A DNA stretch of 64,000 bases from a virus: IMG/VR virus record IMGVR_UViG_3300028920_000044, positions 32,001 through 96,000 of that record; one strand, given 5' to 3'. Positions 332 through 59,748 of the stretch are shown here, piece after piece. The translations under genes were made by a program, and so were the position numbers. Under the pieces are notes generated by a model that worked only from the letters and a program-made list of their open reading frames with translations, was not told the origin of the DNA and made no database searches. Each line of letters starts with the position of its first letter. Position 1 is the stretch's first letter.

Positions 332-3300
332 TTAACTAAACGCATGACCTACATTACTATTATATGCATAGTTTTTATATCTGTTATTAAATTCATAAGC
401 ACAATCAACAAACAGGTTTCGGATAAATGTATCTAATGTAGGATCTGTTACTTCTAAATCTTTCTCATCAGCAACTCGACCTTCAGATGTTCCTGGTCTA
501 GGCAAAGGAATAGTCAAAGGTGGCATTATTTGATTCTGAGAATTTGATCTCTCTTTTAATTTAGCCTCTGATTGAATTTCTGATACTTTGTCTGCTAACG
601 AATTGCGAAGAGTAGTAGGGTTATATCGTTCATTAAACGGTCCGGCAGCTTCTGCTCCTTCAATTCCAAGTTTACTTGCATCAATTTCTTGTCCACTAAG
701 TTTTGAACCTAACTGTCTCTCAGCTACAATATCACTAGCATATTCTGGAGTAAAAGAAGGATCAAGACTCTTAAATACTAATTCAGGATCATACCATTTG
801 CCCTTCTTCTTAACTCCGAAGTGAAGATGTTTCTTCATACCTGGAATAGGACCAACATTACCAGCTTGACCAATTACATCTCCTGGATTGACTTCATCGC
901 CAATTTTTACTTGCTTATTACCTAAATGCAAATAGTGTGTACTAAATCCCTTTTCAGCTGATGGACCATGGTGAAGCACTAACGATCCCCATCTATCTCC
1001 ACTTCCAATAACTTTACCTTTAAATGCAGCAACTACATCATCAGCTCTCATATCAGAACCTTTATGTAATTTGCTTGCACCTTTAAGTTTAGTTCTTCTT
1101 GGTCCAAATGGAGAAGTTATAAAATTTGCCCCTGGCCACATGAACCCACCTTTGCCCATTCTCTTACCAACCCTAAAGGGCTTGTATTTAAACTTCCTAT
1201 CACTGAATCCTAAAGCAGTTGTTAGCTTTCCCCACCAACTTGTTGGTTTGACTTCATCAACACCGAATGTTTTTTCTGTATCTAACATTCCTAAGTCATC
1301 ATACATATCCATAGCAGCAGCACTAGCTCCACTAGCTCCAGCCATACCACCCATACCAGCATATCTGCCTCCTGGTTGAACTACTTTTCCTGCAGCGGCA
1401 GTACTACCACCAGCTGCTAACATTCTACCAGCAGAACTACCCATCAATCCGGCATTTTTCTTTACTGCTTCTTGATCTTTCTTTTTAGCATCATCAACAA
1501 TTTTCTTTTTCTGATCAAGTCGTTTCGCTTCATTTTCAATAGAAGCTTTCGCAGCAGTTTCTATATCTTTAGCTTTCTTTTCAGAGTCTTTTAATTTATC
1601 AGCATCAGATTTGGTATATTTGCTTGCAGGTGATTTTGGAGCATCACCAGCTTTTGGTTTTAATCTCCCTTCTTGTTGTTGTAACATTTTAAGTTGAACA
1701 GAAGGAGGAAGATCAGACCATGCCGCCATTTGCCCGGCATAATGATCAATATATTCTTTATCATTTTGGTCTACAGCTTGTTCATATTTACGAATTGCTT
1801 CTTTATGTAAATTATTATCAATACGAGTAAATTTCTTTACATCTGTACCCGTCGTTTTCTTAATTTCTGTTTTTACCTGGTTCTCAGCATCTGCTTCGGC
1901 TACAGTAACCCAACCGTATCTATTACTAATAGAAGGCACTATCTTTTTATATCGTAACATCATAAAATTGGTGATAATACCTTCATCATCATAAACATAT
2001 AATTTTTTAGCTTCAGGACTTGAGTTACCTTCTAATCTCTCAGTCATCGTCCCTTTAATCTTTTTAGTCTGCGCTTTAGATTCCTGTACTTGCTTAATTA
2101 CTTTACTGGTGCCTGTCATTTTATCAACATCAATTGCACCTAATGTTGCCCATTTAAGACCAGTACCAGCACCGAGACCTAACTTTTGCCACGCAGATAA
2201 TTTCTCACCCAAAGGATCTCCATACTTTTCTTGAGCTCGATAAGCACCAGCTGCAGTACCTCCTATTCCAGCTAATGCTGTTAATCCAGCAGCACCTATA
2301 GTTCTAGCACCGGTGGCTAATCCTCTACCAAGACCCCCAAGAGCTCTACCAGCCATTGGTACACCTCTTTTAGCAATCCAACTAGCACCTTTTTTAACTC
2401 CTGTTTTAGCAAGACCAGCCGCCTTCTTTGAAGCAAAAAGACCAGCGCCAACACCAAGTCCACCACCAACAATAGCACCAGGAACACCACCAGGAATACC
2501 ACCAGCCACTCCTCCTAAAAGAGCAAGTATAGCAGGAACAGCAAGTGGTAAGAAAGACATTGCACTACTAATATCAAATCCACCTTTCTCTTTCTTCTTT
2601 TTGCTTTTCTTTCCTATACCTTTGTGATCTGTATCTTCAGTATTCTCATCGATCTCACCAAGCTTTTCAAGCACTGAATCCATCCACTTGACAGCTTTCA
2701 ATTGTGCCGTTTTTTCTTTGAGTTCATTTAACTCAGACTTGAGACCTCTACCATATGCTCCAGCAGCACCTTTAACATCATCACCACTACCAGTTAACAT
2801 CTTTAATATAAGTTGAGGTCCACCAATTATTTCACCTTTATGAACATATGCTAAACCAGTTTGACCTACAACTCCACCATCTGCTGCTGCAGCTTTTTTC
2901 TCTCCATACCAATTTTCTGGATCATAATCATCAGCAGCATTTCGTCCAAGACTTTGTAGATATTCAACGATACTGATAATTTTACTAACAGGACTGCGAT
3001 GTGGTAATACGTCGCCAATATCTGAACTATCATCAAACTCTTTTATTATTTTTTGTAGTTCCCGTTGTCTTGAACTAGCAGTTGATCTTTGAACTGTAGG
3101 GCTTTCATGTTCGGCCCATATCCTTTCTAATTCTGCCTGAGGATCACGATTTTGTTTCTCTATTAATGCTTGTCGTTCTTGAGGAGACATACCTCTCATC
3201 ATCTGAGCTTCTTTTCTTACACGAATCTTTTCTTCTTCTATCTTTTTCTCTTCTTCCTGTTTAGCTTTTATTTCTTCTTGTCTCTTTGTCCATTCTTGTG

Positions 3301-6217
3301 AAACTTCAAACAATCCTGGGAATTTAAGGATCATACCATCTGCTACATTCGCCAATGTTACAGGCAAAGGATCTGATGTTCCTCTATGAATGTCTAATAA
3401 TAAACCATACATTCCGCCAGGTTCAGCTAATGCTCTTTCTACTTCTTTATTACCACGGAACATTTGACCTTTTACTTCAGCACCCATTCCACCAATTGTC
3501 GATCCTTTATTCTGCAACGCCATCTGAATGAAACCGAGATTATTAATATTTGTAAAGAACTCGTCATCGTCAACACCAAGCCTACCATACGCATCAGAAG
3601 TTAATCTGCCCTTTAAATATTCTTTAATAAACTTCTTATCACCAGATTTAAACATATCAGGCATTTCAGCAAACCCGGCACTCATTCTTACAATATCTTC
3701 ACCACTAAGTCCTTCAAACGTTTTCTGAGTCTGCATAAACTCCAGTATATTCGGAGGAATAGCACCAGCAGCTCCACCTAACCCACCCATTAACAACAAT
3801 GGTAATAAAGCACCACCTGTTGCTAATGAAGCAGCTCCACCTAATATACCAGCACCAGCACCAGCAGCCACACCACCTATACCACCCATCATTTTACGTT
3901 GCATCTGAGGCCATATATCTTGCTCAAATGACATTTGCTTTCTAGCTTGTTCTGCCCCAAACCATCCTGGAACAACTCGAGCTCTACCTCTACCCTTTGC
4001 ACCACGCTGACGATACATCGCGGTTTCCATTACTTCTTCAGGGGTAAGAGTCATTTCTTGACCAATTTCAATAAGTGGAGCAGCAAGAGCCATTTGTAAT
4101 GCACCTACTAACCCTCCACGTTTTTGACCACCAGTCGCCATATCATAAGGCATAGCTTCAACACCACGAACCATTCCAGCTGCACCTGAAAGTCTTTCTT
4201 CTACTGTTCCTCCACCTGCTCCAGTTATTTTATTAACTAACCACCCTACTCGATCCATTCCTGTTCCCTTGAATGCACCTTCCAGAGCGATTTGCATTCT
4301 TTCTCTATCTTGCTTATGTTGATCTTCAAGACCTTTCTCATCTAAATATTTACCAGCAGTATAACTCCACACACCTTTTTGAACTTGCATACTATAAGTT
4401 CGTTCATCCCTCTTATGAGTTATACCCGTCATTTGTTGAGTTAAAAGAAACATCACACCATAAATATTGGCCAATTCTTGGACCTGTCTCCAACCAATAC
4501 TTCGCATCTCTTCCATTATATCAGGAAGACCACGACCCATAAATTCGTTAGCCATTTCTTGTGGTGATTTATAGATACCAGCTTTCTTTCTTAAAGTCTC
4601 TTCACTCTCTAACATCTCTTGTGTTTCTTCTCCACCTAACATAAAGCTTCGTGCACCACCCCATATACTTTTCGCTGCGCCACGAACTTTACCACCTATT
4701 GAGAATGGAAGTTTCAACATATTCCACAAAGCATTAACACCAGGAATATTAGTCAGCATTTCCGCCGGACTCTTTAGGACATCCCAGATCTTACCAATTG
4801 CAGATCTCTCATAATCATCACTCTTAATAGCAGTGTCTGGAATACCAAATCCAGTTCTACGAATAGCTAATAATTCACTTGCAGATAATCTCTGAATATC
4901 AAATGATGCTCCTAATATACTTAACATTTTAACTTCATGACTAGGAGCCATATCGATAATCTGTCGAGATGTCATTTCAAGTAAACGACTTTGTGCTACT
5001 CCTAAACCTCGTTCTTTAGCAGTCTTCTTCCAATCCTTTCTCTCACTGCTACTGGAATACGCTGCAGATAACTCTTCTTGAAAGTCTTTCGGTAATTTAC
5101 CTGTGCTAATGAAATTAAATAATTGACCAAATATATCATATTTAGCAACTGTTCTTGACATAAAGCCTTCAGCAGCACCTACAGCTTTACTAATAGTGCC
5201 ACCTTCAGTTAGGCCAGTAGTTGCTTTACTATAAGCTTCACCTGCACCAACTATACCCTTTTCTTTTTCTTCTCTTAGATATTTCTGATCAGCCCACATT
5301 TCAGGCAAAACGGATGTATGTGCTTCAATCCATTTCATTATCTGAATTTGTAACTGATCACCAGGCTGCAACTGTCCTTTAGACGCTAACATATTAATTT
5401 GAGCATCAAGGGATTGTGAGAAAGAGAACTTAGCTTCCTCTGCTCCACCAGAACTTCTTTGAGCTGTTATTTTCGCCATCTTACGAGCCTTCATCATACC
5501 AAGACCCATTTGAGCAGCAATCATTGGAGCCATCCCAGTCGCCATTCCAGCCATTGAACTAGGATCTGTCATTCCAGCAGGTAGAGTCATTCCCATCTTT
5601 TTAGCAGCAGCCCCGGCCATTGGTCTACCAGCATCATATAATCCCATTGACCCTTGCAGACTGGAAGGCATACCTCCACCATACACCATACTTGCAACTC
5701 GCGGTGCAGCTATTGCTCTATTAGCTAGACTTAACGTACTAAGTGCGCTACTGGCAGTACCTGTAGCGCCTAATTGTTTTCTATGTTGTTGTTCATAGGC
5801 CAATTGTTTTTGCCTTGGGACATTCATAATCCCAGAAGTACCTAAATAACCCAATCCGCCCATCTTAGTTATAGCATCAGTTAATGCGCCAGTGTCAACT
5901 CCACCAGCAGCTCCACCAGCAACACCTCTTACCTTAGATATTTTAGAAACAGCTTTACCAATAACTTCATCTAAATTATCCATTCTTGATACAGCGCTAA
6001 GAGCCATACCAGGCATAAGAGTAGCTTTTTGAATTGCTGTAGCTACTTTGCTACTACGTTGTGCCTCTAATTCTCCTCTTAGCATTTCACTCATATCTGT
6101 GTCGCCAGGTCGACCTCCACCACCTTTACCTTTATTTCTCGATGCTTCAATCATACCCGCAAGTTGAGCAATTTGTTGATTCGACGTACCATACTGCGGT
6201 TTATTTGGTTGTGGCAT
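332..6217 (-). CDS. Tail tape measure protein with C-terminal M23 (lysostaphin-type) peptidase
   Basis: 1961 aa, Gly/Ala/Met-rich helical with glycine-zipper TM segments; GGVVGQTGLAYVHKGE motif; M23 motifs ITSPFGPR, HKGSD, YLHL, HLHF. Confidence 0.85.
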   Translation of the reverse strand: MPQPNKPQYGTSNQQIAQLAGMIEASRNKGKGGGGRPGDTDMSEMLRGELEAQRSSKVATAIQKATLMPGMALSAVSRMDNLDEVIGKAVSKISKVRGVAGGAAGGVDTGALTDAITKMGGLGYLGTSGIMNVPRQKQLAYEQQHRKQLGATGTASSALSTLSLANRAIAAPRVASMVYGGGMPSSLQGSMGLYDAGRPMAGAAAKKMGMTLPAGMTDPSSMAGMATGMAPMIAAQMGLGMMKARKMAKITAQRSSGGAEEAKFSFSQSLDAQINMLASKGQLQPGDQLQIQIMKWIEAHTSVLPEMWADQKYLREEKEKGIVGAGEAYSKATTGLTEGGTISKAVGAAEGFMSRTVAKYDIFGQLFNFISTGKLPKDFQEELSAAYSSSSERKDWKKTAKERGLGVAQSRLLEMTSRQIIDMAPSHEVKMLSILGASFDIQRLSASELLAIRRTGFGIPDTAIKSDDYERSAIGKIWDVLKSPAEMLTNIPGVNALWNMLKLPFSIGGKVRGAAKSIWGGARSFMLGGEETQEMLESEETLRKKAGIYKSPQEMANEFMGRGLPDIMEEMRSIGWRQVQELANIYGVMFLLTQQMTGITHKRDERTYSMQVQKGVWSYTAGKYLDEKGLEDQHKQDRERMQIALEGAFKGTGMDRVGWLVNKITGAGGGTVEERLSGAAGMVRGVEAMPYDMATGGQKRGGLVGALQMALAAPLIEIGQEMTLTPEEVMETAMYRQRGAKGRGRARVVPGWFGAEQARKQMSFEQDIWPQMQRKMMGGIGGVAAGAGAGILGGAASLATGGALLPLLLMGGLGGAAGAIPPNILEFMQTQKTFEGLSGEDIVRMSAGFAEMPDMFKSGDKKFIKEYLKGRLTSDAYGRLGVDDDEFFTNINNLGFIQMALQNKGSTIGGMGAEVKGQMFRGNKEVERALAEPGGMYGLLLDIHRGTSDPLPVTLANVADGMILKFPGLFEVSQEWTKRQEEIKAKQEEEKKIEEEKIRVRKEAQMMRGMSPQERQALIEKQNRDPQAELERIWAEHESPTVQRSTASSRQRELQKIIKEFDDSSDIGDVLPHRSPVSKIISIVEYLQSLGRNAADDYDPENWYGEKKAAAADGGVVGQTGLAYVHKGEIIGGPQLILKMLTGSGDDVKGAAGAYGRGLKSELNELKEKTAQLKAVKWMDSVLEKLGEIDENTEDTDHKGIGKKSKKKKEKGGFDISSAMSFLPLAVPAILALLGGVAGGIPGGVPGAIVGGGLGVGAGLFASKKAAGLAKTGVKKGASWIAKRGVPMAGRALGGLGRGLATGARTIGAAGLTALAGIGGTAAGAYRAQEKYGDPLGEKLSAWQKLGLGAGTGLKWATLGAIDVDKMTGTSKVIKQVQESKAQTKKIKGTMTERLEGNSSPEAKKLYVYDDEGIITNFMMLRYKKIVPSISNRYGWVTVAEADAENQVKTEIKKTTGTDVKKFTRIDNNLHKEAIRKYEQAVDQNDKEYIDHYAGQMAAWSDLPPSVQLKMLQQQEGRLKPKAGDAPKSPASKYTKSDADKLKDSEKKAKDIETAAKASIENEAKRLDQKKKIVDDAKKKDQEAVKKNAGLMGSSAGRMLAAGGSTAAAGKVVQPGGRYAGMGGMAGASGASAAAMDMYDDLGMLDTEKTFGVDEVKPTSWWGKLTTALGFSDRKFKYKPFRVGKRMGKGGFMWPGANFITSPFGPRRTKLKGASKLHKGSDMRADDVVAAFKGKVIGSGDRWGSLVLHHGPSAEKGFSTHYLHLGNKQVKIGDEVNPGDVIGQAGNVGPIPGMKKHLHFGVKKKGKWYDPELVFKSLDPSFTPEYASDIVAERQLGSKLSGQEIDASKLGIEGAEAAGPFNERYNPTTLRNSLADKVSEIQSEAKLKERSNSQNQIMPPLTIPLPRPGTSEGRVADEKDLEVTDPTLDTFIRNLFVDCAYEFNNRYKNYAYNSNVGHAFS

Positions 6218-6230
6218 TTTATTTCCTCAA

Positions 6231-8084
6231 TTACATAGTGAAAAATGGCATAAAGGAACTTTCTAATGCATCATCTTCAGGTACAACAGTTTCAAATGAA
6301 TAGTCATCATCTGCCCCAAGAATCACACCAGATTCAAATTTTTGTTTAAATGCAATATAATCTTTTGGACTCGCTACACTCGCAGCAGTCTTAATTGTCT
6401 CTAATAATCGGTTCTGTATTTCCATATTAGTGAATTGAACCATGGGCATAATCTCCATAGCTCTTCTGTGTCTAGTAAATGCACAGAAAGAAGAACCCAT
6501 AAACAAATCAGTATGTGATTTAGATCTAATCGACCCTGAATTTGTTTTCTCAATAGCACCAAATTGATTAATTAAATTTTGCGATTTAAATCCTGTTATG
6601 TTTTCATTAATACATTCGATTAAACAACCCACCATTAAGGGTTTAGTTAGACCTGTTGTTTTAACACCTAGTTCGTCTTTTAAATCACCAGTCTTATCTA
6701 TATCTCTCTCAAGGAATGGGAGGTAATTGAACGTTGTTATATGTCTCGTCAGGTATTCTATAGGTGCCTGACCTATCGTATTATTCTCAATCGTTAAAAT
6801 AATACGTTCTCCGACCTGTGCGAATAACCACTGAAAAACAAAATGTATAACTTCCCCAAAATTTGTGTAGGATCCGAATTTGTTATTCATTTCAGCGATT
6901 TGATTAAACTTTCGAAATCCATAAATTTCTATAGCACAATACGCCCCTGTTAATGATTGAGCTGTGTCACATCCTATAATATAGTAATCTGATTTATCGA
7001 GTACATTAGTGTAAATATCCAATCTTGAATGATGTGGACACGGCAAAGTCATTACAGGTTTACTTGAAGTAAAGGCAGCAAGAGTTTCATCGTCAAAAAT
7101 ACATTGAGTAGTACCAACGAATAAAAGATCCAATTCCTGATTAACCTTACGTTGATCACTAAGTTCCTGACATTGTTCTTGATACCATTCCTCAGTTTTA
7201 GTTGGGTCTTCACTCCAATGATATCTAACTCTAACAAAAGTATTCTTAGATGGATCTCTAACAGCATCATCTATAACAACATCTGGATTCCAATTTTCCA
7301 ATCCAGTTTCAGAGTTTTCAACAAATAAATCATCTGATTCAACTCCATTTGTCCATCTATTGTAAAACCATTCACCGTCCCCTTGGGTACCGTTCGGAGT
7401 ACTGGTGATTAGCATGAAGTATGGATAATTATATCTCTGCGCTTGCTCCCTTGCCTTAGATAGAGTTTGTTGAGCAGAACCGTAGATTTCATCCATGTAT
7501 CTAATAAATGCAGCTTCGTCAATATATAAAATACCAACAGTTAATGATCGAGCAAGAGTGCTAGGATCATGAGTAGTTGCAGGATAGAATACGTCTACTC
7601 TAGAATCATTAAACAATTCTAAATATGTAACAATATCACTCTTATTTTTAAAGGGTTTATTTGTTACCATCCATTCCGGCAAATTACTGATTATAAACTT
7701 GACTGTTCTTAAGTTTCGTTTACCAGCATCTTGTTTCATATTCAAAATAACTGCTTTATTCCTAGGAAAGAAAACCATAGCCCATACAACTAAGCAAGCT
7801 GCAATGGTTGATTTCCCTAACTGACGAGAAGCCATTAATATGCATTTTTTAAATCTATAAATCGAGCGAACTACTCGACGCATTTTATTATGCATTAAAT
7901 CTCTTTCATAAAGCGTTTGTCCACCACCTTCGTCTAAGAAGCAATAGTTATGTATAAAATAAAGTGGATTACATCTACACTTCCAGACTTCCATCGCTCT
8001 ATGTTTCTTTTCTTCTTCGGATATTTGCCCTAATGCTCTAGATCGAACCATCGTTCGAAGATTTGTGTTTCTAGCATACCGCAT
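6231..8084 (-). CDS. terL: Terminase large subunit
   Basis: PLYFIHNYC N-terminus, Walker A ASRQLGKS, Walker B YIDEAAF, coupling motif ITSTPNG, QELDLLF, nuclease YIIGCD and late HTDL. Confidence 0.93.
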   Translation of the reverse strand: MRYARNTNLRTMVRSRALGQISEEEKKHRAMEVWKCRCNPLYFIHNYCFLDEGGGQTLYERDLMHNKMRRVVRSIYRFKKCILMASRQLGKSTIAACLVVWAMVFFPRNKAVILNMKQDAGKRNLRTVKFIISNLPEWMVTNKPFKNKSDIVTYLELFNDSRVDVFYPATTHDPSTLARSLTVGILYIDEAAFIRYMDEIYGSAQQTLSKAREQAQRYNYPYFMLITSTPNGTQGDGEWFYNRWTNGVESDDLFVENSETGLENWNPDVVIDDAVRDPSKNTFVRVRYHWSEDPTKTEEWYQEQCQELSDQRKVNQELDLLFVGTTQCIFDDETLAAFTSSKPVMTLPCPHHSRLDIYTNVLDKSDYYIIGCDTAQSLTGAYCAIEIYGFRKFNQIAEMNNKFGSYTNFGEVIHFVFQWLFAQVGERIILTIENNTIGQAPIEYLTRHITTFNYLPFLERDIDKTGDLKDELGVKTTGLTKPLMVGCLIECINENITGFKSQNLINQFGAIEKTNSGSIRSKSHTDLFMGSSFCAFTRHRRAMEIMPMVQFTNMEIQNRLLETIKTAASVASPKDYIAFKQKFESGVILGADDDYSFETVVPEDDALESSFMPFFTM

Positions 8085-21384: not shown

Positions 21385-22056
21385 TTACTCTTCTTTCTTT
21401 TTCTTTCTACCGCGAAGTAACTTAGCAGCACCTATTGCTCCAGCGCCTAGACCTGCAGCGATAGCAACTTTACCACCATGCTCAGATCCAAATTTCTTAA
21501 TGGCACTACCGGCATCATCAAGGGCTTCTTTAGTTTTATGAATACCTACTGCTGTTCGTGCTCCTGTTTTCATGCTCGTTGCTGGATTAAATCCTACAGC
21601 ATTCATACCTCTGGCAACTTTTACACCAGGTTCAATACTACCCAAATTACTAAGATCTCTCTTTGCAACCCTACCAATCAGAGGCACATTCTTTAATTTT
21701 TTAGCAACGGATTGATATGTATCAATACTATCATCCGTACTTTTGAGGCTTTTACCCAATTCTTCTCTAGACGTGTTCTTAAACTTTTTATCAATCTTAG
21801 CATACAGCTCTTTTCTCTTCTCAGCATCAGGAAAATCACTTTTTTCCTGAAGAGCAATGATCACACCTTCAGAATATTCTTTCGCTATACCAGAAATCTC
21901 TAAGACGAGATCTGTTGTTTTGTGTTCTTTAGCTTCATCGATCCAATTCGCTTTTTGTTCTGGAGAAGCGAGGATCCAAGCTAGAACATCTTCTCGTATT
22001 TCAAGACCCTTTAATGGATCTTTTTGGTTTGATGCAACAAATTGTTGATAGCCCAT
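21385..22056 (-). CDS. Putative internal virion protein with C-terminal glycine zipper and basic tail
   Basis: MGYQQFV start; LVLEIS shared with 22088 gene; IAAGLGAGAIGAAKLLRGRK. Confidence 0.7.
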   Translation of the reverse strand: MGYQQFVASNQKDPLKGLEIREDVLAWILASPEQKANWIDEAKEHKTTDLVLEISGIAKEYSEGVIIALQEKSDFPDAEKRKELYAKIDKKFKNTSREELGKSLKSTDDSIDTYQSVAKKLKNVPLIGRVAKRDLSNLGSIEPGVKVARGMNAVGFNPATSMKTGARTAVGIHKTKEALDDAGSAIKKFGSEHGGKVAIAAGLGAGAIGAAKLLRGRKKKKEE

Positions 22057-22087: not shown

Positions 22088-22516
22088 TTATTCAGCAGCG
22101 CCAGAAGGAGAACTAGCCGGAACACCAGCAACCTGTTCTCTTCGTAATTTTTTAGCCAGATTCAATGCACCCAATCCTTGTGCAATTCCGGCGGCGGCGG
22201 CAATTTTGCCTTTGTCAGACATCTGAGGATCATCATCACTCATATTGGTGGCAGCTTTAGGTTCACCAGCTGTGGTAGTAGGATCAATTTCTTTACCTGC
22301 TTCATCACCAGATCCACCAGCTTCGGTATTCGGAACATTTGCAGATTCAGAGATTTCAAGAACGTATTTACTTGCCTCATCATCTCCCTTTACTTCTTGA
22401 ATAACAGCTGCTTTCTCTTTTGGAGACATATTCTTCCAGGCTTCAACATCTTCTTCAAACGTCTTGACAGTCTGTCCCTTGCCTTCTAAATTGTCTATAA
22501 AATCTTGATAAGACAT
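22088..22516 (-). CDS. Paralog of the 21385 gene, putative internal virion protein
   Basis: MSYQDFI start; EDV.AW...SP..KA, VLEIS; GIAQGLGALNLAKKLRR. Confidence 0.7.
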   Translation of the reverse strand: MSYQDFIDNLEGKGQTVKTFEEDVEAWKNMSPKEKAAVIQEVKGDDEASKYVLEISESANVPNTEAGGSGDEAGKEIDPTTTAGEPKAATNMSDDDPQMSDKGKIAAAAGIAQGLGALNLAKKLRREQVAGVPASSPSGAAE

Positions 22517-46306: not shown

Positions 46307-47560
46307 GTGGCTATGGTAAGTGAAGAGTTAGCAAAAAACAGTATGCCGTTAAATGATGTTGTAAATGATCTAATGGTTTTCAATTGTGTGTTACAAACGG
46401 CAGGTGACCAGTTTGCTTTAAAGAGAGGTGGCGTCGCTATCCCTTATGTCATCAGCCAACCTGGTGCTGGTAAAACAGCATCATTTGTAGATCTTTGTAT
46501 GCGTCTGGGATGGGGATTAATCGTCGTACATCTTGCTATGAAACCTATAGAAGAACTCGGCGGTATTCCAGACTTTAGAGACATTGAAATCAATGGAGAG
46601 AAGTTTCCAGGTACGGTATGGTCTATTCCTGACCTAATCGGACAATTATACCAAATGGAAGCAAAGAACCTCCCCGGTGTGTTTTTATGTTTCGATGATA
46701 TCCACCTTTGTGGTTCAACATATCTAGGATTAATGCAAGAGTTCTTTACAGAAAGAACTATGCGTGGATACAAAGTCCCAGACAGTGTTGCAATTTGTCT
46801 GTTTGGTAACAGCACAAATAAAGCGGGTGCTAAAGTTCTTTCATCTGCAATAACAAATAGATGTTGTATGTTACCCATTGTAGCAGATTATGAATCATGG
46901 AGAAAGAATTTTGCACTTGGTAACTTAGCAGAAACCCCAAAGTTGGGATTTGACCCTGCGAAACTTAGATTGTTAGCCCAACAAATTACTCGAGTTCACC
47001 CTGCAGTTACTTCGTTCTTAGGAAGAGATAGCTATGCTAAATTCTTTCATGAAGAAGAACAAGTGGACTCTCCTTGGGCCAGTCCTCGATCTTGGACTAG
47101 ATTTTCTAATTGGCTTTTTGCCTATGAGCTTGTCCATGGAAGAATCATGGAGGATCATTACGCATTATATTTGGGAACTGGGCATGTTGGGAAAGAAGCA
47201 GCTAGCGAGTTTGTGAAATATTATAAGATCTTTTCGAAGTTTGATATTCCACATATACTCAATACTGTTGATGCTTACATACTTCCTACATCACCAGTTG
47301 ATCAATATGCGTTAGCATATGCGGTTACAAGTCACTACTGTAATGATAAGAACCGCAAGAATATTGTTGGAAGCTTCGCTAAATTTATTCTCAAATATTT
47401 TGATAACCTACCAGATTTAGCATTAATGGTCGTAAGAGAAATTCTTGATACTGAGAATATCGTCAACAAGAGAACTCTCTATATTGATCTCACAACAGAA
47501 TTAAACGCTCTACGTCCTGGCGTAACGTATAATCTTCTCAAAGATGTAAATGATGCGTAA
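46307..47560 (+). CDS. MoxR-like AAA+ ATPase
   Basis: SQPGAGKT, ELGGIP, LCFDDI, FGN, LSSAITNR, ASPRSW. Confidence 0.85.
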   Translation: MAMVSEELAKNSMPLNDVVNDLMVFNCVLQTAGDQFALKRGGVAIPYVISQPGAGKTASFVDLCMRLGWGLIVVHLAMKPIEELGGIPDFRDIEINGEKFPGTVWSIPDLIGQLYQMEAKNLPGVFLCFDDIHLCGSTYLGLMQEFFTERTMRGYKVPDSVAICLFGNSTNKAGAKVLSSAITNRCCMLPIVADYESWRKNFALGNLAETPKLGFDPAKLRLLAQQITRVHPAVTSFLGRDSYAKFFHEEEQVDSPWASPRSWTRFSNWLFAYELVHGRIMEDHYALYLGTGHVGKEAASEFVKYYKIFSKFDIPHILNTVDAYILPTSPVDQYALAYAVTSHYCNDKNRKNIVGSFAKFILKYFDNLPDLALMVVREILDTENIVNKRTLYIDLTTELNALRPGVTYNLLKDVNDA

Positions 47561-47569
47561 GGAGAATTT

Positions 47570-48919
47570 ATGAACCCACTTGTCGCTAAGAAAGTACAGA
47601 ACGCACGAATAAAGTTATTTAAAAAATCTGACGGTCTGAATTTCTTTGGTGCATGTTCTTATATGTTTGACTGGGACATTCATTCAATGCCCGGGAGAAA
47701 CGCAGAAGGATATGTACTATTCAACAAAGATACTTTTAAACATGAGGATGGAACTATCCATGTTAACCTAGATATGGTCATGCTAGACAATTATACTCAT
47801 ATAAATTTAGCATACATTGTGTGTCATGAATTACTCCACATACTTGGAAAACACGGTGTCAGAAAAGGTCAAAGAGACCATGACATCTGGTGTGTAGCTT
47901 GTGACCATACAGTTGAACGAGACCTGAAAGCATTAGCAACCTCTATCGTACCTTATGATAATTCATATCATATGTTCGATGAATTACATAGATTGAAAAA
48001 TAATTGCACAGTCGAATTTGCCTACGATTGGATCCAGAAACAAATCAAATTAGGAAACATTAAAGTAATCAGAATTCCAGGGGGAATGATTGGTGTCAGT
48101 GGATCCGGCGGTGACTTCTTTGTCAACCCTCAAGTCGGTGGAGTCGATCAAGATAAAATTAAAAGTAATGATCAAAAGATAATTTTAACAAATGAAAAGA
48201 TTGTTGCTGAAGCTCGAGCTTTACATCAAACGATGAAAGCGAAAGGTAATCAGAGTGGAAATCTGACTTCATATTTAGATAAACTACTCGCAGTGAAAAT
48301 CCCTTGGGATGTTTTATTAGAAAAAGCGATCAAAACAAATGTCATACTTAAACCTAATGAACGAACATGGAGAAATCCTAACAAGTACTTTCGAGCATTA
48401 GGTTATATTCTACCCGGTACATCTTCAACAGAAGACCGAGAAGGAGTAGGTGTGATCATCTATGCAACCGATAGTTCCGGTTCAATGTCAGATGAAGAAT
48501 TGAAGAAGTGCTCTAGTGTAACAGATCAAAGCTTTCAATTCTTTCGAGAGGTTTGGTTGTATGTGCATGACACGACAGTTAAACAGAGGAAGATATTTAC
48601 AAAAGATGATCGTTACATGTTCATGAAATTCCTAAAGAACGAAGGTTATAAAGGAAGAGGTGGAACAAGTCACGAGGATGTATTTGAAAAGATCCAAAAA
48701 CAAGCATGGGAGAACGATCAAGTTAAGAACGATTTATCTATGGTAATATGCCTAACTGATGGTTGTTCTGATATTGAAACAATGATTAAGAAAAAAGAAT
48801 ATCGATGGTTAAAGACAATACCAACCGTATTCGTTATATCAGGAGGGTATAACCTAAACATCGAGCAAGACAACATTAAAGTAATTTATATGGACGGTAG
48901 AGATCCAGGTGAGGATTGA
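47570..48919 (+). CDS. DUF2201-type metallopeptidase plus VWA domain protein
   Basis: HELLH..H..R, WCVACD, IPW..LL, TWRNPN, DSSGSM MIDAS, GRGGT, LTDG. Confidence 0.85.
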   Translation: MNPLVAKKVQNARIKLFKKSDGLNFFGACSYMFDWDIHSMPGRNAEGYVLFNKDTFKHEDGTIHVNLDMVMLDNYTHINLAYIVCHELLHILGKHGVRKGQRDHDIWCVACDHTVERDLKALATSIVPYDNSYHMFDELHRLKNNCTVEFAYDWIQKQIKLGNIKVIRIPGGMIGVSGSGGDFFVNPQVGGVDQDKIKSNDQKIILTNEKIVAEARALHQTMKAKGNQSGNLTSYLDKLLAVKIPWDVLLEKAIKTNVILKPNERTWRNPNKYFRALGYILPGTSSTEDREGVGVIIYATDSSGSMSDEELKKCSSVTDQSFQFFREVWLYVHDTTVKQRKIFTKDDRYMFMKFLKNEGYKGRGGTSHEDVFEKIQKQAWENDQVKNDLSMVICLTDGCSDIETMIKKKEYRWLKTIPTVFVISGGYNLNIEQDNIKVIYMDGRDPGED

Positions 48920-49513: not shown

Positions 49514-49840
49514 TTAAAGATAATCGTTAATTCCACCTTCTTGGAGAGCTTCTCCATCAGGAACCAACGCAGACTGGGCATGAACAGCTTCGTTGATGAA
49601 GGTCATTGTGGCAACCTCAGAGAATAAACGAATATTTTTGTAGGTCTCCGGCAGATTGGCGCCCACGAACTCATCAAAATGCTCAAGGACGAAAGCCTTC
49701 AGCGTTTTACCATAATCATAGGTAGCAGCAACAGCCTCTTCGATAAGGTCATTATTCTGCTCCACGAAAACCTGCATTTCTTCACTTTCCAGGATAGTTT
49801 CTACATAACTCTTTTGTTCTGACATTTGAAATTCCTCCAA
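49514..49840 (-). CDS. Acidic protein, possibly a prohead core/scaffold-type protein
   Basis: Very acidic, several I/LxE sites, C-ending codon bias suggesting high expression. Confidence 0.65.
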   Translation of the reverse strand: MEEFQMSEQKSYVETILESEEMQVFVEQNNDLIEEAVAATYDYGKTLKAFVLEHFDEFVGANLPETYKNIRLFSEVATMTFINEAVHAQSALVPDGEALQEGGINDYL

Positions 49841-49887: not shown

Positions 49888-50558
49888 TTAACCAGGGGCT
49901 TGCTGACGCTTTCTACGAAGTTTGCTAAGGGCCCATCCACCTAAGAGAGCTCCACCAGCGGCTGCGGCCATTCCTGCAGGATTATCGTCCATACCCTGAC
50001 GAAGACCTTTAGACATTGCTCCCGCTTTTTCTGAAGCATATTCACCAGCAGCACCAATTTTCTTACCTGCTGCGCTGAATCCTTTTTGGGCTGTACGTTC
50101 AAGAGATTTACCAAATCCTTCATCTCTAAATGCTTTCTCGGCACCTTCTCGACCACTTCTGGCACCCATCTTAACACCAGCAGCTCTAGCTTGAGTCATT
50201 TCTGCAGGACTATATCCACCACCAGCGCTAACCATTCCACGTTTAACTGAGTCTCTAGCGCCTCTATACCAATCGGCAGGATTATACCAAGCTTCGCGTA
50301 AGCCGTCACCAGCCCACCCAATTTGCCCCGACAAAAGGTGGGCTACTCTTTTTTTCCTTCAGGTTCTCCAACAGCTTCCATCAAGAACTTTCGAGAAGCA
50401 TCAAAATCCGCTTCACTGATAAGTCCTTCTACCTCTGTACCCGGTTCACCTGTCTTTGTCTCCACTCCTTCTTGAATAACATCAGCGCCATCCGGTTCTT
50501 CCATGATGTTAGCCACGGACTCTTCGATAATCTTATTGACATCGTAACTCATATTCAC
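49888..50558 (-). CDS. Two-ORF gene (50343..50558 plus 49888..50334) probably joined by a -1 ribosomal frameshift
   Basis: A_AAA_AAA just before the TAG stop, downstream hairpin, open -1 frame, no RBS for the second ORF. Confidence 0.7.
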
Positions 50559-50592: not shown

Positions 50593-51234
50593 TTAAGCAG
50601 CGGCAGTAGCAGCTTTTCCTCTTTGTTTAAATCTATTCATAGTTGCTTTAGCCTCTCGCTTCTGACCACGTTTAATAACATGATCTGTACCCATTTTAAC
50701 AGATTTATCCCATACACCTTTAACATTGGTCATGCCTGCAGCAATAGCGGACTTAATACGATTTACAGCATTTCCACCCATTTTCTTAGCACCGGCATAT
50801 CCTTTCGTCATCTTAGCACCCAGAGCTTTAGCTCCATATTTCGCTCTTGCTGACTTCAGAAATGCTCCAGCCTTCTTCTTACCACTCTTGAAAGATTTAC
50901 CAAGATCATCCATTCTATCCCTAAAAGATTTTTTACCACTGTATCCTCTTGGCACCTGATGTACTCCTTTAGCTTCAAGCATTAAATTCTCGTAAAAAGA
51001 AGCAGAGTAAGCCATGTAAGGAGCAAGTACTGTTGACAGATGTTCTTCAAACACTTCATCAACATTGTCAGATTCAAGCATTTCGATATATTTCTCGATT
51101 GCTTTTTCTACATATTCACCTTCATACATAGATGCATCAATTATAGCACCTTCGAGAACTTGATCTAACATAATTTCATCTTCGTTCTCAACAAACAAAA
51201 CCAATTCGGTATTATCTTTAAACATTTTAATCAT
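50593..51234 (-). CDS. Acidic-N/basic-C putative internal head protein
   Basis: Charge switch at LMLE/AKG. Confidence 0.75.
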   Translation of the reverse strand: MIKMFKDNTELVLFVENEDEIMLDQVLEGAIIDASMYEGEYVEKAIEKYIEMLESDNVDEVFEEHLSTVLAPYMAYSASFYENLMLEAKGVHQVPRGYSGKKSFRDRMDDLGKSFKSGKKKAGAFLKSARAKYGAKALGAKMTKGYAGAKKMGGNAVNRIKSAIAAGMTNVKGVWDKSVKMGTDHVIKRGQKREAKATMNRFKQRGKAATAAA

Positions 51235-51251
51235 CCTCCATTGAATTTAAG

Positions 51252-51971
51252 TTATCTTAATTTTTTTGCCGTGAACAATAACGCTTTACCTCTAGCACTT
51301 CGACGTATCCCTTTTCTTTTTAAAGCTCTTTTATTTTGTACAGCCTCTTTAAGTTTAGCTCTCTTATTCTTCATATCAGTACTGTTAACTAACTTCTCAT
51401 ATGCTTTCTCTGATTTTTTATGTTGTTTGTAAGCCGCCTTATGTGCTTTAACTGCAGCCTTTAATTTTACTCCAACATACTTTTTAAGCTTCTTTACTGG
51501 TTTACTTGATTTAATCTTTTTACCTATTGAATCTTTAATAGCCTTCTTTATATTAATAATACCAAGTTTTCTTTTAATAATATTAGACTTCGATAATTTC
51601 TTGATATCTTCTTTGGCTATTTTTTTCGCCTTTTGTCCATCAATCTTTGACTTCTTCTTCTTAATTTTAGGGACATTGGCTTTAGTATTTTTGTAATCAT
51701 CGGCTGATGCCGAATGCTTATTAACTATGCTAGCTACTTTCTTCGCCATTCCTTGATCATCAATCTCTTCATTCCAATTTTTCTCGAACAATATCGATTC
51801 AAAAAATAAAAGATTTTGAGACAGATATAAATCAAGTCTTTCAAACACAAACGATTCTAACTTAGTACCATCATCAGCACTATTAGCATATTTTTCAAGA
51901 GCTGTAATAACATCATCATTTTCGTAAAAAACAAGATCACTAAGAGACTGTTTTAATAGAAATTCTAACAT
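51252..51971 (-). CDS. Acidic-N/basic-C putative internal head protein with Lys-rich tail
   Basis: LVFYEND resembles LVLFVENED of the neighbour; ILFE then Lys-rich. Confidence 0.75.
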   Translation of the reverse strand: MLEFLLKQSLSDLVFYENDDVITALEKYANSADDGTKLESFVFERLDLYLSQNLLFFESILFEKNWNEEIDDQGMAKKVASIVNKHSASADDYKNTKANVPKIKKKKSKIDGQKAKKIAKEDIKKLSKSNIIKRKLGIINIKKAIKDSIGKKIKSSKPVKKLKKYVGVKLKAAVKAHKAAYKQHKKSEKAYEKLVNSTDMKNKRAKLKEAVQNKRALKRKGIRRSARGKALLFTAKKLR

Positions 51972-51985
51972 AGTAAGTTCCTTAA

Positions 51986-52666
51986 TTACACATACTTATA
52001 AGTTTGCCCAATTGCATGCTCGTCTTTTTCTCTCTGCTTTCGTGCTGCTCTAACTGCACCAGGCTTATCAAGAAATCTTTGTCCTGAAGACTTAAGGTAT
52101 TTCGACTGCAACTTTCTTCCACCACCAACAAGTCCTGCTCCTGCAGCTCCTGCAGCTTGAGCGCCACCTCTTAATAAACTTCCAGCAGCTTTCCCATAAA
52201 GACCAGTTTGAACATAAGCCTTAGCTCGTTTCAAACTTGTTCCTGTGTTTTTAAGTCTATCTTTCGCCCATCCTAGCTTTTGATCTGCATTTTTATTCAA
52301 CGTCTTACTTTGTGCTATTCTCTTTGTTCCAATTCGTTTTAACCTTCTAGCTCGCCACATACTTAACTCTATTATATTACCATATATAGCGGGATAGTTA
52401 GAGTATTTCTGTTCTTCTAAAACTTTAGTGATTGCATAATTAAGTAATGAACCCTCGGTAAATATGCTAGCAGGATCAGTATCATCATAGATAGAAGCAT
52501 TCTTTACTATATATCCACTGATTGCTTCAACAATAGCTTCTTTGTGTTTTGAGGTTAGTTTTCCTTCGATCATGGAAATGAACTCATCACCTAAGTATAC
52601 ACATCCATCCATAATCGACTCATACATAATTTGCTCATGTAATGGGTAATTGTTTTCCATAATCAT
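51986..52666 (-). CDS. Acidic-N/basic-C putative internal head protein
   Basis: Charge switch at IIE. Confidence 0.75.
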   Translation of the reverse strand: MIMENNYPLHEQIMYESIMDGCVYLGDEFISMIEGKLTSKHKEAIVEAISGYIVKNASIYDDTDPASIFTEGSLLNYAITKVLEEQKYSNYPAIYGNIIELSMWRARRLKRIGTKRIAQSKTLNKNADQKLGWAKDRLKNTGTSLKRAKAYVQTGLYGKAAGSLLRGGAQAAGAAGAGLVGGGRKLQSKYLKSSGQRFLDKPGAVRAARKQREKDEHAIGQTYKYV

Positions 52667-52669
52667 TCC

Positions 52670-52882
52670 TTATTTAGGTCTACCGTCTATCACTTCAGTC
52701 GGTACTATATCCTCAAAGTATTTATTTACTCGATCAACTTGTCGTTCCTCATCAGTTGCAAGCCAGTCTTTCTTTATAGGTTCCTTAACCCAACCTTCAT
52801 TAAGACGTCTTAATCGTTTAGCTACACCTAAAGCACCCAATCCTGCTGTTATACCAACTATCTCCATTTCGTTTAACGCCAT
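52670..52882 (-). CDS. GITAGLGAL-KRLRR family peptide
   Basis: AAGGAG RBS; motif. Confidence 0.75.
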   Translation of the reverse strand: MALNEMEIVGITAGLGALGVAKRLRRLNEGWVKEPIKKDWLATDEERQVDRVNKYFEDIVPTEVIDGRPK

Positions 52883-52896
52883 GTTTTGTCTCTCCT

Positions 52897-53166
52897 TTAT
52901 ATTACAGTGCCTATAGCTCCAGCAGCAGCTCCAGCAGCAGTAGATATCGCTAAATCTCTACGAGATTTCTTTTTCTCTTCTGGAGTTTTCTTATGTTTAG
53001 ATTGAGTTAATTTAGATGCTGCTGCACCACTAAGACCCCATACGGTTGCTTGTTTTAGAGCTGCTTTAGCACCACCACCTTTTACAGCAGCATGTAAAGC
53101 ATTCTTTAATTGTTTGACTGGTATGTCGTCTATATTAATTTCAAATAAATGTGCAACAGGTATCAT
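52897..53166 (-). CDS. Tagged protein (MIPVAHLFE) with Gly/Ala-rich segments
   Basis: Start moved to ATG 53166. Confidence 0.7.
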   Translation of the reverse strand: MIPVAHLFEINIDDIPVKQLKNALHAAVKGGGAKAALKQATVWGLSGAAASKLTQSKHKKTPEEKKKSRRDLAISTAAGAAAGAIGTVI

Positions 53167-53170
53167 TATA

Positions 53171-53317
53171 TCAGTCCTTGTCACTTGCCTGTTTACTTTC
53201 AACAATTTTTTCTTGATTAGAAGGGGTATCGCTCGTTTCTTGAACCCTTCGTAGTTTCTTAGCGAAATTCATCGCTCCTAATCCTGCTGTTATTCCGGTT
53301 AATTCTATGTTTGTCAT
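53171..53317 (-). CDS. 48-aa ORF absent from the track (MTNIELTGITAGLGAMNFAKKLRR...)
   Basis: Manually translated; GGAGGAGG RBS; paralog of 52670. Confidence 0.8.
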   Translation of the reverse strand: MTNIELTGITAGLGAMNFAKKLRRVQETSDTPSNQEKIVESKQASDKD

Positions 53318-53333
53318 ACCGCCTCCTCCATTA

Positions 53334-54062
53334 TTATTTCTTTGCTATTGTTGGTTTCCCAGCTTTAGCTTTCTTCCAATCGTCATATCTATTCTTTGCT
53401 CCAGCAGCTTTAAGACCTTTCGCTGCCGTGCGATTTACATGATATGCTCCCTTTGCACTATGCAATGTAGTTCTAATTCTATTCATTACTCCTGACTTAT
53501 CTATTGCATTTCCCATTTTCGCAGTAGCCCCAGATGCCGCTTTAGTACTCGATACCATAGCTTTACCAGCTTTCTTCATGGTCTTCTTTGCTTTATCCAT
53601 ACGCCAATCAGCAAATTGTTGTCCTCTTTTCTTGCCTAACCCTTTCATAATCCCTCTTCTAAGAGCACCACCAACTCGCATAGGAGCTCTTAACACAGCC
53701 CCAAGTTTACCACGTAACCGATTAGGATCTTGTAAACCTTTAGATAAATCCCTTCTTGCTTGATACAGAACTTGCCCCGCTTTTTTTGAATATTCTTTTC
53801 CAGCTTTACCATAATCAACAAGTTCATTAATAATAGATTGTCCTGTTTCTACAACAATATTAGCTTCATTTATATTCTCAATTATAGCATGACCAGTTAA
53901 ATAATCACTATAATCACAAAAAAATTCAATTAATTCATTGTCTTCACTAGATCCAATAAGATATCCAGCATCCTCATACATTGCTTCAGCAAATTCAATA
54001 TCTTCTTGAAGTATGACTCGATTCATTCCTAAAGAAATTGCAGCCGTTAGCTGTTGGCTCAT
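53334..54062 (-). CDS. Acidic-N/basic-C putative internal head protein
   Basis: IIENINE..IINE then Lys/Arg-rich. Confidence 0.75.
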   Translation of the reverse strand: MSQQLTAAISLGMNRVILQEDIEFAEAMYEDAGYLIGSSEDNELIEFFCDYSDYLTGHAIIENINEANIVVETGQSIINELVDYGKAGKEYSKKAGQVLYQARRDLSKGLQDPNRLRGKLGAVLRAPMRVGGALRRGIMKGLGKKRGQQFADWRMDKAKKTMKKAGKAMVSSTKAASGATAKMGNAIDKSGVMNRIRTTLHSAKGAYHVNRTAAKGLKAAGAKNRYDDWKKAKAGKPTIAKK

Positions 54063-59424: not shown

Positions 59425-59748
59425 TTAGGCCCCTGCAACATTTGTTTTCTCGTCGTAATTTGCATTCCCCACAAATTTATCTGCGTCTTTATCGACATCA
59501 GACTCTCCAGATAATTCTGGATCTACTTTAGCATTATCAGCGGTAATACTACCACCTTGAAAATGTTGCGCAATTCTTTTCTTTGCTACACTTGATAAAT
59601 TGATAGGAATATTCACAGCAGGATATTTAGAAGTATATCCCCTTTTAGTGAATTGAAATACGTCATTTTCTCCTATCCTCCGAAGTCCTTTCACTAGGAT
59701 TAAAGCACCTAACCCTGATGAAATTCCCAAAGCTTCTAATTTCGTCAT
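59425..59748 (-). CDS. GISSGLGAL-KGLRR family protein
   Basis: AAGGAG RBS; motif. Confidence 0.75.
   Translation of the reverse strand: MTKLEALGISSGLGALILVKGLRRIGENDVFQFTKRGYTSKYPAVNIPINLSSVAKKRIAQHFQGGSITADNAKVDPELSGESDVDKDADKFVGNANYDEKTNVAGA

Follow-up and report, generated by a model that had tools for sequence, protein, structure and literature searches.

Programmed −1 ribosomal frameshifting has been described in several bacterial and phage systems, and the sequence elements associated with it recur from one system to another. A-rich heptamers read by lysine tRNA are classic −1 sites, 3' structures act at a spacing of 5-9 nt, and internal Shine-Dalgarno sequences, which occur in dnaX and in about half of the insertion sequence (IS) elements and are not obligatory, act from 9-14 nt upstream (PMC5009743). 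In the dnaX gene of Escherichia coli (tau/gamma), the internal Shine-Dalgarno sequence lies ~10 nt upstream of an A-rich X_XXY_YYZ heptamer decoded by Lys tRNAs, with a stem-loop a few nucleotides downstream, while in the 'reversed' dnaX of some bacteria the shift makes the longer product and the zero-frame stop directly follows the site (PMC5009743). The OrfA/OrfAB pairs of the IS3 family, such as those of IS911, comprise a short ORF followed by a long −1-frame ORF; the two share a few codons around an A-rich heptamer that is accompanied by a Shine-Dalgarno sequence and by a structure on its 3' side, and the downstream ORF may also start alone at a weak codon (PMC5009743). Among double-stranded DNA phages, tail assembly chaperones such as gpG/gpGT of lambda are translated from a single start into an abundant short protein, and a −1 slip shortly before the short ORF ends adds a C-terminal extension to the rarer form (PMC5009743). 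Additionally, −1 shifts outside the chaperones are known from capsid decoration, including gene 10 of T3/T7, Lactobacillus phage A2, and Listeria phages A118/A500, in which a C-terminal extension is added to a fraction of the protein (PMC5009743). Nearly all annotated phage frameshifts lie in tail assembly chaperones; among the joined genes of the SEA-PHAGES collection, these account for 2397 of 2476 (PMC10885494).

In this article, a candidate −1 frameshift in a phage gene of another kind is analysed. The window, the whole stretch of 64,000 nt under study, covers positions 32001-96000 within an IMG/VR viral contig of 109 kb that has a CheckV completeness of 41%. A second, identical copy of the downstream ORF of the pair (ORF2) is carried on a 306-kb contig, and the source is therefore an uncultured jumbo phage of roughly 300 kb. 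Its DNA is present in marine-sediment metagenomes from 4 studies. The phage has a G+C content of ~35%, the minus strand carries almost all genes, and no tRNA genes were found in the 64-kb window.

Layout of the locus and its candidate recoding signals

A scan of metagenomes for related DNA recovered three loci belonging to two lineages, namely L002 and the near-identical L003/L004, and the comparison at the DNA level accordingly comprises three independent lineages: the window, L002, and L003. The features of the locus are as follows, in the direction of transcription of the minus strand.

50343..50552, minus strand: ORF1, zero frame, 69 aa, acidic (pI ~4), with two predicted helices
50552, minus strand: ATG start of ORF1, with an AGGAGG Shine-Dalgarno sequence upstream
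50366..50369, minus strand: GGAG, an internal Shine-Dalgarno-like element that precedes the heptamer by 10 nt and may stimulate the shift from its 5' side
50359..50361, minus strand: TGA of the −1 frame, preceding the open −1 frame, which opens only from 50358
50349..50355, minus strand: slippery heptamer A_AAA_AAA, in frame as (GG)A AAA AAA, placing two Lys codons in the ribosomal P and A sites
50344..50348, minus strand: spacer GAGUA between heptamer and stem, 5 nt in all three lineages
50345..50343, minus strand: TAG stop of ORF1, whose end reads GGA AAA AAA GAG TAG
50312..50343, minus strand: stem-loop of 32 nt, with a G+C-rich outer stem of 7-8 bp and a variable inner stem; candidate 3' stimulator
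49888..50358, minus strand: ORF2, −1 frame, 156 open codons, basic (pI ~10), Gly/Ala-rich, helical or disordered
5' of TTG 50334: segment encoding the peptide VAHLLSGQIGWAGDGLR
49890..49888, minus strand: TAA stop of ORF2

The original prediction, made from the sequence of the window, had placed an in-frame A_AAA_AAA at 50349-50355 of the minus strand within GGA AAA AAA GAG TAG, and every letter of it was confirmed; translation likewise reproduced the −1 frame reading RKKRVAHLLSGQIGWAG into ORF 49888..50334. The TGA of the −1 frame and the TAG of the zero frame confine a productive shift to an interval of 16 nt, most of which is the A-run. After a −1 slip, the fusion counted from ATG 50552 is 221 aa long, in agreement with the length of about 220 aa first put forward. 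Across the 109-kb contig, 22 ORF pairs have a −1 open frame of at least 100 codons that overlaps the end of the upstream ORF, and the ORF1/ORF2 arrangement goes beyond chance: only 1 of these 22 overlaps, that of ORF1 and ORF2, holds an in-frame XXXYYYZ heptamer.

The hairpin that had been proposed after the heptamer (50311-50344) is present, with the arms GCCCACC...GGTGGGC at 50343..50312 and the anticipated inner UUUG/CAAA stem; the additional A-U pair (50344/50311) exists in the window only. The calculated free energies are −16.9 kcal/mol in the window, −14.3 kcal/mol in L002, and −17.8 kcal/mol in L003, at equal length and position. Compared with shuffled sequence, the stability is modestly better (z of −1.4 to −2.4), which counts against the frameshift reading. 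The outer stem is invariant and shows no covariation, which counts against the frameshift reading; the GG of its 3' arm persists where the encoded amino acid changes between R and G. A constraint at the RNA level is suggested, and part of the conservation of the outer stem could be owed to the codons that it overlaps (A-H-L and R/G-W-A). Pairing of the hairpin loop with downstream sequence to form a pseudoknot was rejected, the complementarities found not being kept in L002.

The GGAG element located 10 nt upstream of the heptamer had been missed initially. It is invariant in the window, L002, and L003 while the amino acid that follows varies (E, E, and V), and this conservation strengthens the case for frameshifting. 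AGGAG-type Shine-Dalgarno sites are used by the phage genes. A second Shine-Dalgarno-like motif, AAGGA, directly adjoins the heptamer; motifs so spaced are not known to favour −1 shifts, and it is counted against the frameshift. The locus has an in-frame heptamer within the overlap, a 3' structure at 5 nt, and an upstream GGAG at 10 nt, and these spacings count in favour of the frameshift reading since they lie within the published bacterial −1 ranges (PMC5009743). The heptamer itself counts against it, as ribosomes of E. coli shift less readily on A_AAA_AAA than on A_AAA_AAG (PMC5009743).

Judged by these sequence elements and their conservation, the locus probably uses programmed −1 frameshifting by the ribosome, as known from dnaX and IS3 elements of bacteria, yielding products of 69 and 221 aa. 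Translation of the acidic ORF1 would begin at ATG 50552, and with the Lys tRNAs on AAA AAA (50354..50349), the 3' hairpin would sit at the mRNA entrance, 5 nt downstream. A fraction of the ribosomes would then slip one base back, re-pair with AAA AAA, and go on in the frame of ORF2. The shifted product of 221 aa would consist of 68 acidic N-terminal residues and a basic, Gly/Ala-rich body of 153 residues, ending with a glycine-zipper-like helix and then a KLRRKRQ tail, whereas unshifted ribosomes would read GAG and stop at UAG, giving the acidic protein of 69 aa. We infer the slip and how efficiently it occurs, as well as the parts played in it by the GGAG and the hairpin.

Conservation in relatives and alternative routes to ORF2

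The three related loci (L002, L003, and L004) all keep the block TGAAGGAAAAAAAG, the zero-frame TAG one codon past the run, the −1-frame TGA before the run, the 5-nt spacer, the 32-nt hairpin with GCCCACC/GGTGGGC, and the GGAG 10 nt upstream. The block TGAAGGAAAAAAAG..TAGCCCACCT and the arm GGTGGGC do not differ between the window, L002, and L003, lineages whose synonymous sites have diverged almost to saturation (dS ~0.9-1.3). The dN/dS ratios of 0.15-0.34 for ORF1 and 0.13-0.20 for ORF2 point to purifying selection on both. Codon identity over conserved residues is 44% overall, and the cassette stands out only mildly by its stretch of identical codons; similar runs occur at the N-terminus, which is counted against the frameshift. 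Conservation in relatives had been named at the outset as a check on the prediction, and the layout proved to be kept in three diverged relatives, with a continuous ORF in none of them. The gene array around the locus is also syntenic in L002. Reassignment of TAG was rejected as an explanation, the zero frame past the TAG being not conserved and soon meeting another stop in L002.

At the protein level, a word-indexed search with ORF2 returned five relatives of 112-145 aa (68-76% identity) and no fused form, with lengths up to 259 aa covered. An HMM search through 1.8 billion representative proteins retrieved one protein of 2188 aa and 12 members of the family, 99-158 aa in length, and no fused form of ~220 aa. 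Longer proteins with the ORF1 domain were also searched for, and none was found. The eight homologues of ORF1 (seven from the databases and that of L002) are 67-75 aa long, and all eight end with (G/A)-K-K, one residue, and the stop, despite indels just upstream. Homologues of ORF1 and ORF2 apparently share contigs even where the identity of ORF2 is only ~31-35%, as judged from the equal longest contigs of P0013 with P0015 and of P0024 with P0016 (11661 and 65241). Scans of IMG/VR with single proteins and alignments as queries returned zero relatives, as did a scan of GTDB genomes, and GenBank phages gave neither a DNA match nor a protein match.

Homopolymer length errors are common and the fusion matches its neighbours in size, features that would suit a miscalled A-run or a recently broken (pseudogenised) gene of 221 aa. 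The run, however, is 7 A with 0 differences and 0 gaps in contigs from 4 studies (the source run and three others, compared as contigs only), and a miscall is excluded for practical purposes because the contigs of these four studies show no differences or gaps. One of the sequencing runs retains a Nextera-type adapter end and is presumably Illumina data. The question of 7 versus 8 A, raised with the original prediction, is thus answered by 7 A in four independent assemblies and in three diverged relatives. Decay is opposed by the same split in relatives at ~70% protein identity and dS ~1, with purifying selection on both halves, and an intact single-ORF version is absent from the databases searched; the artefact reading is effectively refuted, and artefact and decay together are left with a negligible probability. 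The invariant homopolymer run exactly at the frame junction would also suit transcriptional slippage, in which RNA polymerase would add one A at A7/T7 in some transcripts. By frame arithmetic, one extra A restores a single ORF, and the A8 mRNAs would encode the same 221-aa fusion, with the same product and comparative signature expected as for a frameshift. Such slippage is nevertheless decidedly unlikely: efficient bacterial slippage has been described for ~9 A or T (PMC5009743), whereas all lineages have a run of 7; slippage leaves unexplained why a 3' hairpin is conserved at 5 nt and a GGAG at −10; and 33 other A/T runs of at least 7 in the genome give no sign of use.

The remaining alternative concerns the start of ORF2. 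Two genes might be linked by translational coupling, such that termination at the UAG melts the hairpin hiding the TTG 8 nt downstream and permits reinitiation, with ORF2 alone (148 aa) produced and no fusion. As had been stated for ORF 49888..50334, a TTG is its only start and it lacks a ribosome binding site; near the head of ORF2, no start-like codon other than TTG 50334 is present, and this TTG has no Shine-Dalgarno sequence and, beyond what had been noticed, is buried in the hairpin. Of the 45 genes in the window, 33 have a Shine-Dalgarno sequence, nearly all of them with ATG. A hairpin over a start without a Shine-Dalgarno sequence is a classic coupling arrangement, gene callers put the start of ORF2 at the TTG, and this codon occurs in the window, L003, and probably P0002/P0003; its presence in 4 of 6 close lineages is counted against the frameshift. 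The distant family members that stand alone as ORF2-like proteins of 99-158 aa likewise favour coupling and count against the frameshift reading. On the other side, the start-like codons of ORF2 are not positionally conserved between clades, and in P0015/P0016 an M start-like codon lies one codon later than the TTG of the window. In L002, the ORF2 frame contains no ATG, GTG, or TTG for 37 codons, from the slip site to ATG 4082, and its sole ATT, at 4040, is downstream of conserved residues. This start-less segment is open, aligns without gaps with the window and L003, differs from the window by 8 synonymous and 12 replacement codons, and has a dN/dS of 0.13-0.34 at dS ~1. Because this stretch of L002 is under protein selection and has no start codon, it must, on comparative grounds, be entered from ORF1. 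Coupling further leaves unexplained the K-K-x-stop ending of the 8 ORF1 homologues, the A7 run, and the conserved A-H-L codons 5' of the TTG, and as the account of this locus it is unlikely. Independent initiation at the TTG, the outcome that had been named as able to overturn the prediction, cannot be general, as L002 has no start there and yet conserves the protein sequence. In some lineages, reinitiation at the TTG may yield ORF2 alone as a further product; it cannot be the general route, and both routes could coexist, by analogy with OrfA, OrfAB, and OrfB of IS911. The programmed −1 frameshift, by comparison, is supported by the 7 A, by the lack of a continuous ORF in relatives, and by the lack of a start in L002.

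The two proteins and their neighbourhood

Searches of PHROGs and Pfam gave no match for ORF1, ORF2, or the neighbouring genes, and the ESM Atlas returned unnamed viral clusters only, below 0.9. The AlphaFold2 model of ORF1 (pLDDT 67) has helices at residues 5-17 and 47-60 with an acidic linker between them, while that of ORF2 (pLDDT 45) is helical at low confidence. The first 17 residues of ORF1, MSYDVNKIIEESVANIM (50501-50552, minus strand), are nearly invariant in eight lineages, one of which has T for S at residue 2, and the following ~30 residues vary freely, with indels. This pattern suggests that the N-terminus of ORF1 is a short recognition helix. A weak resemblance to it was observed in NNDLIEEAVAATYDY, residues 24-41 of the next gene (49514-49825). 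At the other end of the fusion, the last ~30 residues of ORF2 (DNPAGMAAAAGGALLGGWALSKLR.KRQ) are invariant in the close clade and recognisable throughout the family; they form a Gly-zipper-like helix followed by KLRRKRQ and are weakly hydrophobic, with a Kyte-Doolittle maximum of 1.08 over 19 residues.

The original prediction had likened this C-terminus to a glycine-zipper/LRR ending in the genes at 21385 and 22088. A Gly/Ala-rich helix followed by KLLR/KLRR does occur in both, whereas there is no 'LRR' and the motif is instead a basic KLRR cluster. When the fusion was compared with the neighbouring charge-bipartite genes and with 21385 and 22088, neither BLAST nor hhalign detected homology past the C-terminal motif of ~25 residues. 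A module of ~20-25 residues, comprising a Gly/Ala-rich helix (AAGLGAL-like) and then (A/S)K(K/R)LRR, was observed at the termini of otherwise unrelated small proteins:

21385-22056, minus strand: helix-plus-KLRR module at the C-terminus
22088-22516, minus strand: helix-plus-KLRR module near the C-terminus
52670-52882, minus strand: helix-plus-KLRR module at the N-terminus
59425-59748, minus strand: helix-plus-KLRR module at the N-terminus
L002 945-1145 and 1442-1654: helix-plus-KLRR module in two small ORFs of L002

This module might serve the proteins that carry it as a common tag for targeting, anchoring, or oligomerisation. Because both products of the locus would share the N-terminal helix, and one of them would tether it to a module that recurs in at least four other phage proteins, free and anchored forms of the N-terminal domain in a set ratio are suggested, in analogy with lambda gpG/gpGT. 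A more specific proposal, which we regard as speculative and rather unlikely, is that the frameshift sets the ratio of the free 69-aa acidic two-helix peptide to the form tethered to the module, which is counted here on at least five other proteins of the phage, and that the locus is a second, non-tail, G/GT-like stoichiometric device for assembly or targeting.

The neighbouring genes of 213, 239, 226, and 242 aa have an acidic head and a basic tail, like the fusion, and this likeness of the 221-aa fusion to its neighbours in architecture and size counts in favour of the frameshift. A tandem array at 50593-54062 on the minus strand (L002 121-3717) encodes proteins of 207-275 aa with acidic helical heads and Lys/Arg/Ala/Gly-rich tails, for which no family matches were found and no mutual homology was detected by BLAST or hhalign. 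Further A7 runs were noted at 51261-51267 and 51620-51626 on the minus strand, inside the Lys-rich gene 51252-51971; one of them lies three codons before the stop, no long −1 frame follows either, and both look like plain Lys-Lys codons. Downstream of ORF2, genes of 108, 77, and 74 aa precede a convergent ATPase/VWA pair. This pair occupies the sole plus-strand island near the site, 46307-48919 (L002 5399-8005), consisting of an ATPase (phrog_1297) and a 449-aa HExxH protein, and is conserved in L002. PHROGs names the 449-aa protein an HNH endonuclease (phrog_1314); it looks more like a metallopeptidase/VWA-type partner. At 332-6217 on the minus strand, a protein of 1961 aa was observed with a C-terminal M23-type metallo-endopeptidase/endolysin-like domain (residues ~1700-1850), and its gene adjoins that of the large terminase (6231-8084).

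Comparison with described systems

The phage locus shares with dnaX the order of its elements and differs from it in the site, which is A_AAA_AAA rather than A_AAA_AAG, in its minimal GGAG, and in the gene itself, which is unrelated and belongs to no known family. It resembles the 'reversed' dnaX in that the shift would make the longer product and a zero-frame stop comes right after the site, and the IS3-family pairs in that a short ORF and a long −1-frame ORF overlap at an A-rich heptamer. Unlike the IS3-family elements, it has no transposase homology and sits in a syntenic array of phage genes, and inverted repeats are not expected. The slippery site of lambda is G_GGA_AAG. In contrast to the tail chaperones, the locus does not lie beside a tape-measure gene, and PHROGs and Pfam gave no chaperone match; with the same synteny in L002, the earlier designation as a non-tail-chaperone gene holds by both position and family, and the locus is not a tail chaperone as far as synteny and family assignment indicate. 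It also differs from the capsid-decoration cases, whose short form is a complete structural protein that often receives an Ig-like extension, whereas here the short form is an acidic two-helix peptide of 69 aa and the extension, of low complexity, accounts for two thirds of the whole. Frameshifts at a slippery sequence in jumbo phages were also searched for in the literature, and no paper was found.

In a field where annotated phage frameshifts lie almost entirely in tail assembly chaperones, this is a non-chaperone case in which all three bacterial stimulatory elements are present and conserved at saturating synonymous divergence, in an unannotated gene family. For annotation, two 'hypothetical' genes would be corrected to one gene with two products, and the locus would provide a non-chaperone training case for frameshift predictors, as well as a possible route to the function of the proteins that share the Gly-zipper/KLRR module. 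The gene family is new. The mechanism is a textbook one, and the advance is for that reason an incremental one, unless an unusual function emerges. If the proposed ratio device were true, it would represent a protein-sorting tag system new in uncultured jumbo phages, with recoding as the control of the ratio.
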